Source of the DNA: a virus
Lineage: Duplodnaviria > Heunggongvirae > Uroviricota > Caudoviricetes
Virus record (IMG/VR): IMGVR_UViG_2526164633_000032
Coordinates: 1-39,549 of that record
Reading direction: 5' to 3' (one strand)
Length of the DNA stretch: 39,549 bases
Made by a program: the position numbers. Below are positions 6,001 through 9,000 of the stretch, piece after piece (position 1 is the first letter of the stretch; each line of letters opens with the position of its first letter).

Positions 6001-9000
6001 CCACCGCCTTTAAGTTGATGGCTCAACGTATCAATGATGAGTTACAGCACCAGGGCCAGGCGCTGGGGGATATGTTTGGCGGTGGTGATGTGTCGTTACA
6101 GGATATCCTTCGCCAGGTGTCTCAGGAACTGGAAAACGAAGGCATGCAAGGGATATCCGGCGGTCTTTTCGAGTCCGTTTCCGGCGGTAGTTACAATGGT
6201 GTTGCTCCATATACCAGTTTGCTATTACATCGGGCATCCGGCATCAAAGACATTATTCATCTGATCAGGCTGCTTTCCCGTACAGATCCCCAGGATGAAC
6301 AGCTTGTACAAGTGCTTGCGCATTTTGTTCGAATGCCTGTTGCCGACGTGAAAAAATGGTGCCGATTATTCGGTATCAGCAATTCGTTACTTCGCGGCTT
6401 GTTAAATCACGCATCCTCCCTTGGGCGCGATGGCTTTGACGAGATAGCGCAGGCGATAAAAAACGGAGATATGCCACCAGCTATTGACTGGTTTTCCATT
6501 CGCCCAACCAGGGTGAAAGCATTCCTTAGCGCGGCGCATTCGGCATCACCATTGGCAGAAATGGTTCAGAGGTTGTCGCTCATATTCACAGACCATACCG
6601 CGTTGGGTGATCTGACTCTGGACGAGATGAAAGAAGCCTCCATTCAGTGGGCCGATCAACAAAATGAGGTTAACTATGACTTCTTGCCAGCATTCAGGAA
6701 GGCCGTTAGTAAAGCTGATGATGCCCGTGGAATTCTGAGGGCATTTAAGGCATTGCAAAGTCAGGTTAATAAACATGTCGGTGATATCGATGGGGTAACG
6801 GCGGAAGGCAGGGATATCCTTAAAGAGCACGGCATAACGCCAGAGTTTATTGATGAGATCAGGACTGATATGCAGCGTGAGGTCGTATCGTCCCTGCAAA
6901 TCGTAGCCAGAGCGTTGGCGGATGCTAATCCGAAGAGTGCGGCCATTGTTAACCGTGTTATTGGTGATATTGAAGCATCGGAGGGCATGGGGGCGCTGAA
7001 ACTCTTCCTTTCGCGAGCGTTTAATCCTAACGGCAATATTCTCCCCGGCATTATTGGTGAGGCTAAAAAGTATGTCAGCGAAGAAGAACTTGAGCATCTT
7101 GACCAACTACTTAAGCGATTCTCATATAACCCGCAGACACGCTGGCAAATGAATCAGCAAAGTATGGGTTCGGTCCACGAGAAAGTGTTATCTGCCATGA
7201 ACAGTGCGATCGCCAACTCATCCGTATCTGAAGAAAAAGCTCTTGAGTGGGCCGACTCTTTTATCACGGAAGAAGTGGAAGAAGCCCGCGCTGGACAGAA
7301 TGGTGGGATAGACCTGCGCAAGGAACTTGCTGATATTTATCGCCTGACCGGCGGTAAAATTTCGACCTTATCAAAGGTGGTTCACCACCAGGGAAGGGCA
7401 TATGCAAATATTAATGGTGTTGTTGCTGTCAATTTGAACGATGAAAATGCAAGTGCACTGTGGCACGAGCTGGGTCATCATCTTGAGTACAGTAACCCTG
7501 GTTTGTTAGAGAAAGCCCGGTCATTCCTGAAGGCCAATGTTGAAGGGGATAAGCCATCTTTCGTTAATATCGGTGGGCGTGGCAAGCCTGAATGGTGCTT
7601 CAGATCTCGATTGAGTAATATTTATATGGCGAAGGTATACCCGCCAGCCTCAGTAAGTAACACCGGGAAAATTCGGCAGAAATCACCGACTATTTCCAAA
7701 ACGTCAGCAACGGAAGTATTCTCTATGGCTCTTCAGTTGTATCATGACAAAGAGGCCGCTGCCGCATCACTGATGAATGGTGACGGATTGCTGGAACTGT
7801 TATTAGGTGTGGCAAAGGAGCTAAATAATGCAGATTAAAATCGCAGCGCCATTAGGCGGAGATGCCATTATCGAATTTGATGATAATGAAGAAGTTTCCG
7901 GGCGTTTAAGCATTATCTCCGGTGACATTACCGAGGACATGATCGCTGAAGCCATAGCTGGGGCAAATCCCAATAGCTATATGGGATTCGTTAACACCCT
8001 TGATGCTCCCGCAAGTGATGTTCTCCGAACGCTGCATCTTTACGCTGGCTGGTTTGTTGATTGGCCAGCAGTAGATGGTGGCGATGAGGACGACGACGAC
8101 GATGATTTTGGTGATCATGTAGACCAGATCGTATATTGAAGAAATCCCGCCGATTGGCGGGATTTTTTTAATCGCTTTCCACTTCTTCCGTGGTGTTTTC
8201 TTGCAGTTCTGTTAATGCAGCACGACATAGGTTCCGGGCATTGGCTATAGCCACACTTTTGACTTCATCCGTCATCGTGCAGGTAATGTACTGATCGAGT
8301 TCTTCAGCGCGGATGATGCTTTTGCCAATCAGAAACTGTATTTGCCAGAGCAGATCGGCATCCATAATCAGAATTTCTGCCGGGCCTTCAGGGCCAGCCG
8401 GGAAGGAAACATAAGACTGTTTGCCCAGGCCGATAACTCGACAACTTGCTTCAAGAATTGCGCGCTTGAGGTCTGACTTTGTAACGGAAACAGGTTGGTT
8501 TTCACCAGTGATTATGCCGTTGACATGGAAATGGAAGGGCATGTAGCTTGAAATACGCTCTACTTTCCACACGCCAGCAAGCGATCCTTCATGCAGCACA
8601 ATGGGGGTAACCGCGAGTTTCATCTCACCATATAACTGCTGGCAGATAGCTGGATTGCTGAATACATCCAAAGGTTCACACTCAAACAGCGGCGCAATCT
8701 GCATGAGGTCCATCATGGTCATACCAGGGGGACGAGCAGTAATGAATCTGCGCATGCCAGTATCCATTGTGCGCCAGATAGCTACACCATGCTTTTTGCT
8801 CACTTCTTCAGTAAAGCCAAGGTGGCACATGATGGTTTTTTCGATAGCCAGATCAGAGATCGAAACCTTTTCGCCAGGCACACCATCATTATTGATGGTC
8901 ACTTCGACACTCTGACCATTACGCAGGCGGTATTGAATTGCTTTAGTATTTTCCACGTTAAATCACTCCACTACAAACCAGTCACATGCCAGTAAGTCGC

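Follow-up and report, generated by a model that had tools for sequence, protein, structure and literature searches.

Hxr, a small acidic protein encoded at the end of the dar operon of P1-like phage-plasmids, is a tentative candidate partner for Dar cargo proteins

Introduction

What is the role of the small and extremely acidic protein whose gene, hxr, closes the dar operon of P1-like phage-plasmids? The copy examined here lies in a 39,549-nucleotide stretch of Caudoviricetes DNA (IMG/VR record IMGVR_UViG_2526164633_000032, positions 1 to 39,549), hereafter called the window, which comes from a P1-like phage-plasmid (Punavirus) with 98% identity to Salmonella phage SJ46 and 96 to 98% identity to P1 and P7 isolates. 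The Dar system of P1 is a classic case of virion-delivered anti-restriction whose mechanism is still unclear, and published descriptions of it omit hxr despite the tight linkage of this gene to ddrB. Piya and colleagues reportedly defined six Dar components in 2017. The system is described as a set of six head proteins, Hxr not being one of them, that confers protection only in cis (PMC12707154; PMC12810830).

An earlier note, made by inspecting the window sequence, had singled out the open reading frame (ORF) in question without naming it. Sequence comparison identifies it as an already catalogued P1 gene, which the P1 record calls hxr (P1_gp021; YP_006490; PHROG 2292). Our further searches of the literature on hxr turned up annotation tables only. 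The GenBank label of the P1 protein reads ‘possible repressor; homolog of Xre’, and is derived from 28% identity to an Xre repressor over amino acids 23 to 80 (~58 residues). This label has been copied into the records of SJ46, RCS47, JL22 and further elements. As judged by profile searches and structure prediction, what is new in the present analysis is that the Xre label appears to be wrong, that the family seems confined to P1-like elements and has no recognizable fold relative, and that its coupling to ddrB is invariant.

Results

Hxr is a conserved and highly acidic protein

The hxr gene is an ATG-initiated ORF on the + strand (positions 7828 to 8139), identified from the ORF list and its translation, that specifies 103 amino acids followed by a TGA stop codon. 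By composition count, the protein carries 24 acidic residues (18 Asp and 6 Glu) and three basic residues (one Lys and two Arg), plus two His, resulting in an isoelectric point (pI) of about 4.05 and a net charge of about -21. Its net-acidic fraction of 0.204 is the highest among the 81 ORFs in the window that start with ATG and are 80 amino acids or longer, and is about twice that of DdrA, which ranks second (0.107). The existence of a real small acidic ORF at this location, as claimed by the earlier note, is therefore borne out by ORF call, translation and composition. The note was right that the protein is very acidic with three basic residues, but its figure of about 26 acidic residues is slightly too high. 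It also had the protein end in its acidic tract. The tract (DGGDEDDDDDDFGDH) is present, as is FGDH, but it is not C-terminal, and the protein runs on through VDQIVY.

Hxr from the window is 100% identical to the proteins of SJ46 and RCS47 and 98.8% identical to that of P1, as determined by tblastn. The P1 protein (102 amino acids) has one Asp fewer in the tract and two substitutions relative to the window protein. In both P1 and SJ46, the position of hxr after ddrB and the overlap between the two genes are identical to those in the window. Residues 1 to 103 align with positions 1 to 105 of the 105-position profile phrog_2292 (E 3.2e-60), a family annotated as of unknown function, and a hidden Markov model (HMM) that we built for the family recovers the window protein with an E value of 4.5e-38.

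A word-indexed search returned near-identical proteins plus one relative with ~60% identity. The search was extended to an exhaustive HMM scan covering 1.84 billion representatives, followed by a profile search. Homologues are ~96 to 105 amino acids in length and reside on 80 to 94 kb contigs of Klebsiella, Citrobacter, Cronobacter, Enterobacter and Rosenbergiella, as well as in metagenomes, with pairwise identities within the family falling to 26%. From the origin of these sequences, the Hxr family is judged to be restricted to P1-like phage-plasmids of Enterobacterales. Three large repeat proteins (P0021, P0024 and P0026; E 4e-7 to 7e-4, with 4 to 9 matching stretches) were rejected as repeat-driven false positives. 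When the window was searched with the family HMM for paralogues of Hxr, none was found, nor was any kinship to DarA_N, DdrA or Ulx. One locus (L005, positions 8001 to 8555) encodes a 184-amino-acid protein, P0015, that consists of a tandemly duplicated Hxr domain in which only the second copy carries a long acidic tail; this version of the gene has a TTG start codon and overlaps ddrB by 17 nucleotides.

The ratio of nonsynonymous to synonymous substitution rates (dN/dS) for hxr is 0.13 in comparison with P1 and 0.17 in comparison with the ~60%-identity relative, as expected under purifying selection. Because of this selection, and because acidity and tail are kept down to 26% identity, the ORF is more than a chance occurrence. 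Hxr is a real, selected and lineage-specific protein.

hxr is coupled to ddrB at the end of the dar operon

The operon that begins at the late promoter LPdar (Table 1) has the order lydA-lydB-hdf-darA-ddrA-ddrB-hxr, wherein the products of hdf and darA both carry a DarA_N domain. A promoter scan of the + strand between LPdar and hxr revealed no promoter-like site. The ribosome-binding site of hxr is embedded in the final codons of ddrB, and the coding regions of the two genes overlap by 11 nucleotides. The earlier note was thus correct about a coding overlap, but not in placing the hxr start codon on the ddrB stop codon: the ATG occupies positions 7828 to 7830, and the ddrB stop is in another frame.

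The same gene order from lydA to hxr is intact in two loci with Hxr relatives of only ~30% identity, one from Rosenbergiella (L004) and one from a metagenome (L006). The region downstream of hxr varies, and contains a RelE/MqsA-type toxin-antitoxin pair, an Arc-like gene, a porin gene or isaA. The ~30%-identity relatives use GTG or TTG as start codon, yet they retain the 11-nucleotide overlap and a purine-rich ribosome-binding site. We retrieved 82 loci by way of DdrB, and hxr is present in all 81 that extend past ddrB; the single locus that lacks it (L073) ends inside ddrB. Likewise, in 86 of the 89 hxr matches the start of hxr lies inside a long upstream ORF, 11, 14 or 17 nucleotides short of its end. 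The view that hxr is the last, coupled gene of the anti-restriction operon therefore stands, given that the arrangement is kept even in ~30%-identity relatives. We propose from this arrangement that translational coupling would cause hxr to be made in fixed proportion to ddrB. As the last coupled gene of the darA/ddrB operon, kept in relatives, hxr can reasonably be assumed to have a functional tie to DdrB or to the Dar system.

A search for DdrB relatives outside the P1 group that are followed by a small acidic gene reached none. The scan of genome contigs yielded two near-identical loci, the scan of viral contigs yielded mainly loci with 97 to 100% identity and three at about 60%, and a protein search with the C-terminal 305 amino acids of DdrB returned close relatives or fragments only.

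Immediately downstream of hxr is an intrinsic terminator. The stretch from position 8136 to 8175 forms a 16-base-pair hairpin with a predicted stability of -23 kcal/mol (z = -5.8), and none of 200 shuffled sequences was as stable. This hairpin, together with its T run, sustains the claim of the earlier note that a strong terminator follows the gene. The element is usable in both directions and separates hxr from the convergently oriented isaA-like gene (positions 8168 to 8956, - strand). A simple consensus scan for terminators missed this hairpin (8140 to 8170), which is the strongest in the region; the T run is likely absorbed into an extended stem. An Rfam search of positions 7600 to 8400 gave only sub-threshold ‘leader’ matches, which are caused by the terminator hairpin.

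Structure prediction suggests a small core and a disordered acidic tail

We built an AlphaFold2 model on a family alignment of 22 sequences; confidence in the model is moderate. The mean predicted local distance difference test score (pLDDT) is 76, the five models range from 72 to 76 overall, and means for blocks of 10 residues lie between 68 and 89 over residues 1 to 80. The predicted globular core comprises strands at residues 2 to 6, 12 to 16 and 28 to 32, helices at residues 36 to 44 and 62 to 71, and a strand at residues 76 to 78. Residues G53, V65-L66-R67, W75 and W79-P80 are invariant in the alignment, and five columns of the core have acidic residues in at least 80% of the members. Foldseek searches with this moderate-confidence model found no convincing neighbor in the PDB (best E 1.0), and the best match among viral models (BFVD) had an E value of 0.19. 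On the strength of the model, the core is best described as a small alpha/beta fold without a known relative.

Beyond the core, pLDDT values drop below 50 at residues 83 to 87, 92 to 95 and 97 to 103. An acidic tail is found in all 22 family members, with a length of 21 to 25 amino acids, a net charge of -7 to -14 and a variable sequence. The last residue is Asn or Tyr in 20 of the 22 members, mostly preceded by I/V-V, such that the typical C-terminus reads hydrophobic-V-N/Y. In the window protein, the disordered tail accounts for 11 of the 21 net negative charges. Near-identical P1-like elements (loci L008 to L089) carry from 4 to 8 Asp residues after D-E, and these differences are always in frame. 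Because the Asp run changes length in frame, the C-terminal peptide is preserved. This polymorphism suggests trinucleotide slippage, with selection keeping the C-terminus. We also considered that the tail might mimic the C-terminal tail of single-stranded DNA-binding protein (SSB), given its acidic run and terminal aromatic residue. This idea was dropped, as the C-terminus of most family members is V-N and not an aromatic residue or P-F.

The sequence and the predicted fold also bear on the Xre label. Hxr has no match to HTH_3 or to any other Pfam or NCBIfam family at E values up to 10, and the family profile found nothing among PDB sequences at the same limit. A Pfam scan of the 22 family members at E values up to 1 returned no helix-turn-helix (HTH) family and only noise. 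Repressors of the Xre/HTH_3 type resemble Hxr in length (~100 amino acids), but they differ in secondary structure and in lacking its acidic pI. The Hxr model opens with three beta strands and contains only two short helices (beta-beta-beta-alpha-alpha-beta), in contrast to the all-alpha fold of five helices and the basic DNA-binding surface of such repressors. Furthermore, a pI near 4 with three Lys or Arg residues is incompatible with DNA binding, and R67 is the sole invariant basic residue in the family.

Published data on the Dar proteins and hxr

The P1 virion proteome comprises 27 proteins and includes Hdf, DarA, DdrA, DdrB, DarB and Ulx, whereas Hxr is absent (PMC9024508). These experiments used trypsin and a cut-off of two unique peptides, a limit that DdrA just reached (PMC9024508). 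The predicted tryptic fragments of Hxr are 4, 22, 41 and 36 amino acids long, and one of them is of favorable size. hxr was not among the 29 knockouts made in the same study (PMC9024508), and a genome-wide CRISPRi (CRISPR interference) screen found it to be non-essential for plaque formation, as are all dar genes (PMC10695390).

With regard to potential partners, DdrB is a polyvalent protein whose ParB-like domain lies at the N-terminus, with a zincin metallopeptidase domain bearing an HExxH motif at the C-terminus (PMC5512222). Processing of DdrB to about 76 kDa takes place ahead of packaging, and its peptidase is predicted to carry out this step (PMC5512222). Inside the head, the complex of DarA and Hdf presents a DNA-binding face that carries positive charge (PMC12810830).

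The genes surrounding hxr in the window

The features discussed in this study are listed in Table 1. Two of the dar genes in the window are damaged. Alignment reveals that ddrB carries a 1-nucleotide deletion near position 4914 (CTAAA-AACC, compared with CTAAAGAACC in P1 and SJ46). The frame shifts after about 20 codons, such that the frame beginning with the ATG at position 4853 stops at positions 4949 to 4951 after 32 codons, and the long ddrB ORF restarts with a GTG at position 4944. From the alignment, this deletion may be either a real mutation that inactivates ddrB or truncates its product N-terminally, or a sequencing error. In addition, darB is split (positions 14142 to 34510) by a Tn21-like insert of ~13.5 kb that carries merC, merA, a gene for a sul1-type pterin-binding enzyme, aadA and a Tn3-family transposase gene. 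These lesions indicate that the Dar system is probably impaired in this element, while hxr is intact.

An ORF whose product has a C-terminal domain resembling Tad2 (Thoeris anti-defence 2) is located two genes from hxr, between ssb and the isaA-like gene. The equivalent stretch of P1 is interrupted by IS1.

Table 1. Positions of the hxr-related and neighboring features in the window.
Feature	Position	Strand	Description	Basis or remark
Late promoter LPdar	1151 to 1169	+	-22 box AAGTTACTT, -10 box TACCAT	identical to annotated P1 LPdar
ddrB	4853 to 7838	+	DdrB-ParB domain, Pfam PF18763	E 2e-39; HELGHH in DdrB alignment
Shine-Dalgarno sequence of hxr	7816 to 7820	+	AGGAG, 7 nucleotides before the hxr ATG, within final ddrB codons	sequence
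Overlap of hxr and ddrB	7828 to 7838	+	11 nucleotides, coupling junction; ddrB TAA at 7836 to 7838	sequence
Predicted globular core of Hxr	7828 to 8073	+	residues 1 to 82	AlphaFold2 and 22-sequence alignment
Predicted disordered acidic tail of Hxr	8074 to 8136	+	C-terminal residues 83 to 103, net charge -11, ends IVY	pLDDT and alignment
GAT/GAG/GAC run	8083 to 8106	+	encodes D-E-D6	sequence; length polymorphic between isolates
Intrinsic terminator	about 8140 to 8170	both	GC-rich stem, GAUU loop, T7 run	fold
isaA-like gene	8168 to 8956	-		convergent with hxr
281-amino-acid ORF	8963 to 9808	-	C-terminal Tad2-like domain	E 2.5e-22
darB, N-terminal part	14142 to 15470		442 amino acids, N6 methylase
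darB, C-terminal part	29033 to 34510		1825 amino acids, SNF2/helicase

Discussion

Our best interpretation of these observations, which we hold tentatively and at somewhat less than even confidence, is that Hxr, as an acidic protein, serves DdrB or another Dar cargo protein as partner or chaperone. In such a mechanism, Hxr would bind DdrB or another DNA-binding cargo protein, and its acidic tail would either take the place of nucleic acid or offer a docking peptide. The tail might mask a basic or nucleic-acid-binding surface of the cargo until it is loaded into the procapsid. Hxr could thereby maintain the cargo in a soluble, inactive or loading-competent state up to procapsid entry, and would itself be largely excluded from the mature virion. 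The binding partner, the chaperone role and the exclusion from virions are all points that we infer.

Several basic surfaces are candidates for such an interaction. Hdf (positions 1945 to 2556) has a net charge of +21 and a pI of 10.3, and residues of about 900 to 960 of DdrB have a net charge of +8. The ParB domain of DdrB might offer a further surface for the tail. The charges of Hdf (+21) and Hxr (-21) are exactly opposite, which may be a coincidence or a hint at a partner.

What would be expected of an acidic chaperone is consistent with the observations on Hxr, as evident by its small size, its acidity, and a gene that adjoins and is co-expressed with that of the putative cargo. The lack of Hxr from the list of 27 virion proteins likewise fits this expectation. 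A packaging chaperone, which the earlier note named as the alternative to a DNA mimic, would agree with these data. Acidic chaperones for exported proteins include VirE1 of Agrobacterium, which serves VirE2, and the class I chaperones of type III secretion. Like Hxr, these proteins are small, acidic and encoded beside a large, co-translated protein that is delivered into another cell, and they would be expected to remain in the producer cell. However, Hxr has neither homology nor a fold match to them, and we know of no poly-Asp tail in VirE1 or in type III secretion chaperones.

A number of points weigh against a role as partner or chaperone. Adjacency to ddrB and translational coupling are equally expected for a Dar component that is packaged together with the others. 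The absence of Hxr from the virion proteome is weak evidence, because one favorable peptide could hardly satisfy the two-peptide cut-off. The earlier note had regarded absence from virions, together with a lack of effect on restriction, as grounds for giving up its proposal; such absence is what the published proteome reports, but with one favorable Hxr peptide it counts only weakly. In the window, hxr is intact despite the frameshift in ddrB and the transposon that interrupts darB, a finding that could reflect either a role that is independent of DdrB or damage that is recent. Similarly, locus L003 (positions 1930 to 2326) carries an intact ~60%-identity hxr homologue with a TTG start codon, preceded by only the last 29 codons of ddrB. 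This locus is a 2.7-kb contig that further contains a dinI gene and about 1 kb of DNA that appears to be non-coding, and it is probably a fragment of a decaying prophage.

A bolder version of the partner hypothesis can be drawn by analogy with secretion chaperones. Hxr would then be an overlooked seventh Dar player with a novel fold. Its polyanionic tail would temporarily take the place of DNA for the ParB domain of DdrB or for Hdf and DarA, and Hxr would either chaperone cargo into the procapsid or travel along with it. We consider this full scheme to be possible, but somewhat unlikely.

The main rival to a chaperone is a seventh Dar component that is itself packaged and co-injected with the DNA. 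Hxr would then be an acidic internal head protein contributing to anti-restriction, possibly by drawing off type I enzymes as a polyanionic decoy or by pairing with the basic Hdf as its counter-ion. hxr sits in the dar operon, as expected for a Dar component, its synteny with ddrB is obligate, and the operon mates Hdf, DarA, DdrA and DdrB are all internal to the head. The case of DdrA is instructive, since this proven head component from the same operon is also small and acidic (121 amino acids and pI 4.09 in P1), has no Pfam domain, and barely reached the two-peptide limit. By comparison, Hxr, with its one favorable tryptic peptide, was possibly missed. The match between the net charge of -21 for Hxr and that of +21 for Hdf would also suit a counter-ion. 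However, DdrA has no detectable sequence kinship to Hxr, and it was found in virions whereas Hxr was not among the 27 proteins listed. Published accounts name six Dar proteins without Hxr (PMC9024508; PMC12810830; PMC12707154), no capsid-targeting feature was identified in Hxr, and it is not a paralogue of DarA_N, DdrA or Ulx. On this balance, we regard a packaged Hxr as unlikely.

A more specific version of the partnership with DdrB would make Hxr a regulator, either an inhibitor or a timer, of the zincin self-processing that turns DdrB from 108 kDa into its 76-kDa head form, with the C-terminal peptide of Hxr occupying the active site. hxr begins within the last codons of the peptidase end of ddrB, and DdrB is processed before packaging, by its own peptidase as predicted (PMC5512222). 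Moreover, the C-terminal tripeptide of Hxr, with its free carboxylate, is conserved, and a basic patch of DdrB adjoins the HExxH motif. However, this reasoning is positional only, Foldseek found no inhibitor-like fold, and the tail is not conserved save for its last residues. A regulatory role of this type therefore seems improbable.

Still less probable, to the point of being very doubtful, is the proposal of the earlier note that Hxr is a DNA mimic, considered here as a protein that would act in trans in the cytoplasm, in the manner of Ocr or ArdA, against type I restriction or another DNA-binding defense. Its extreme acidity (pI 4.05, net charge -21) at ~100 amino acids is in the range of known mimics in both size and charge, five positions of the core are acidic in at least 80% of the family, and the neighborhood is one of anti-defense, with the dar operon on one side and a Tad2-like gene two genes away. 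T7 Ocr (gp0.3) and ArdA are likewise small, acidic, encoded by phages or plasmids and found in an anti-restriction context. Ocr is the product of the first gene expressed upon T7 infection and acts in trans, and both Ocr and ArdA display their charge on rigid, DNA-shaped dimers. By contrast, about half of the charge of Hxr resides in a disordered tail of variable sequence, and no sequence or fold relationship to Ocr or ArdA emerged from the PDB sequence profile search or from Foldseek searches of the PDB and BFVD with a moderate-confidence model whose surface was not inspected. These searches, which included the DNA mimics in the PDB, matched Hxr to no solved or viral fold, and the DNA-mimic proposal does not hold up well. 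Timing is a further obstacle. Within the late operon driven by LPdar, hxr comes last and has no promoter-like site of its own, and Hxr is missing from the published virion list; neither early synthesis nor presence by the time incoming DNA is exposed is indicated, and the protein would be made too late for that DNA. If a protein is made late, incoming DNA can benefit from it only when it has been packaged, and Dar protection from the virion is strictly in cis. Therefore, an Ocr-type inhibitor that acts in trans is unlikely.

Finally, the Xre-like transcriptional repressor of current database annotation is effectively refuted in silico and essentially excluded by the missing HTH profile, the predicted beta-led fold and the acidic pI, its support being the short 28%-identity alignment given in the P1 GenBank note and the label propagated from it.

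Dropping the ‘Xre-like repressor’ label would halt the spread of a wrong annotation across many phage-plasmid records. If Hxr does act as a partner or chaperone, the ordered assembly of the Dar proteins could include a chaperone-like step; otherwise hxr is a small, dispensable, lineage-specific gene. Such a role would also make Hxr and its cargo a phage counterpart to the effector-chaperone pairs of bacterial secretion systems.

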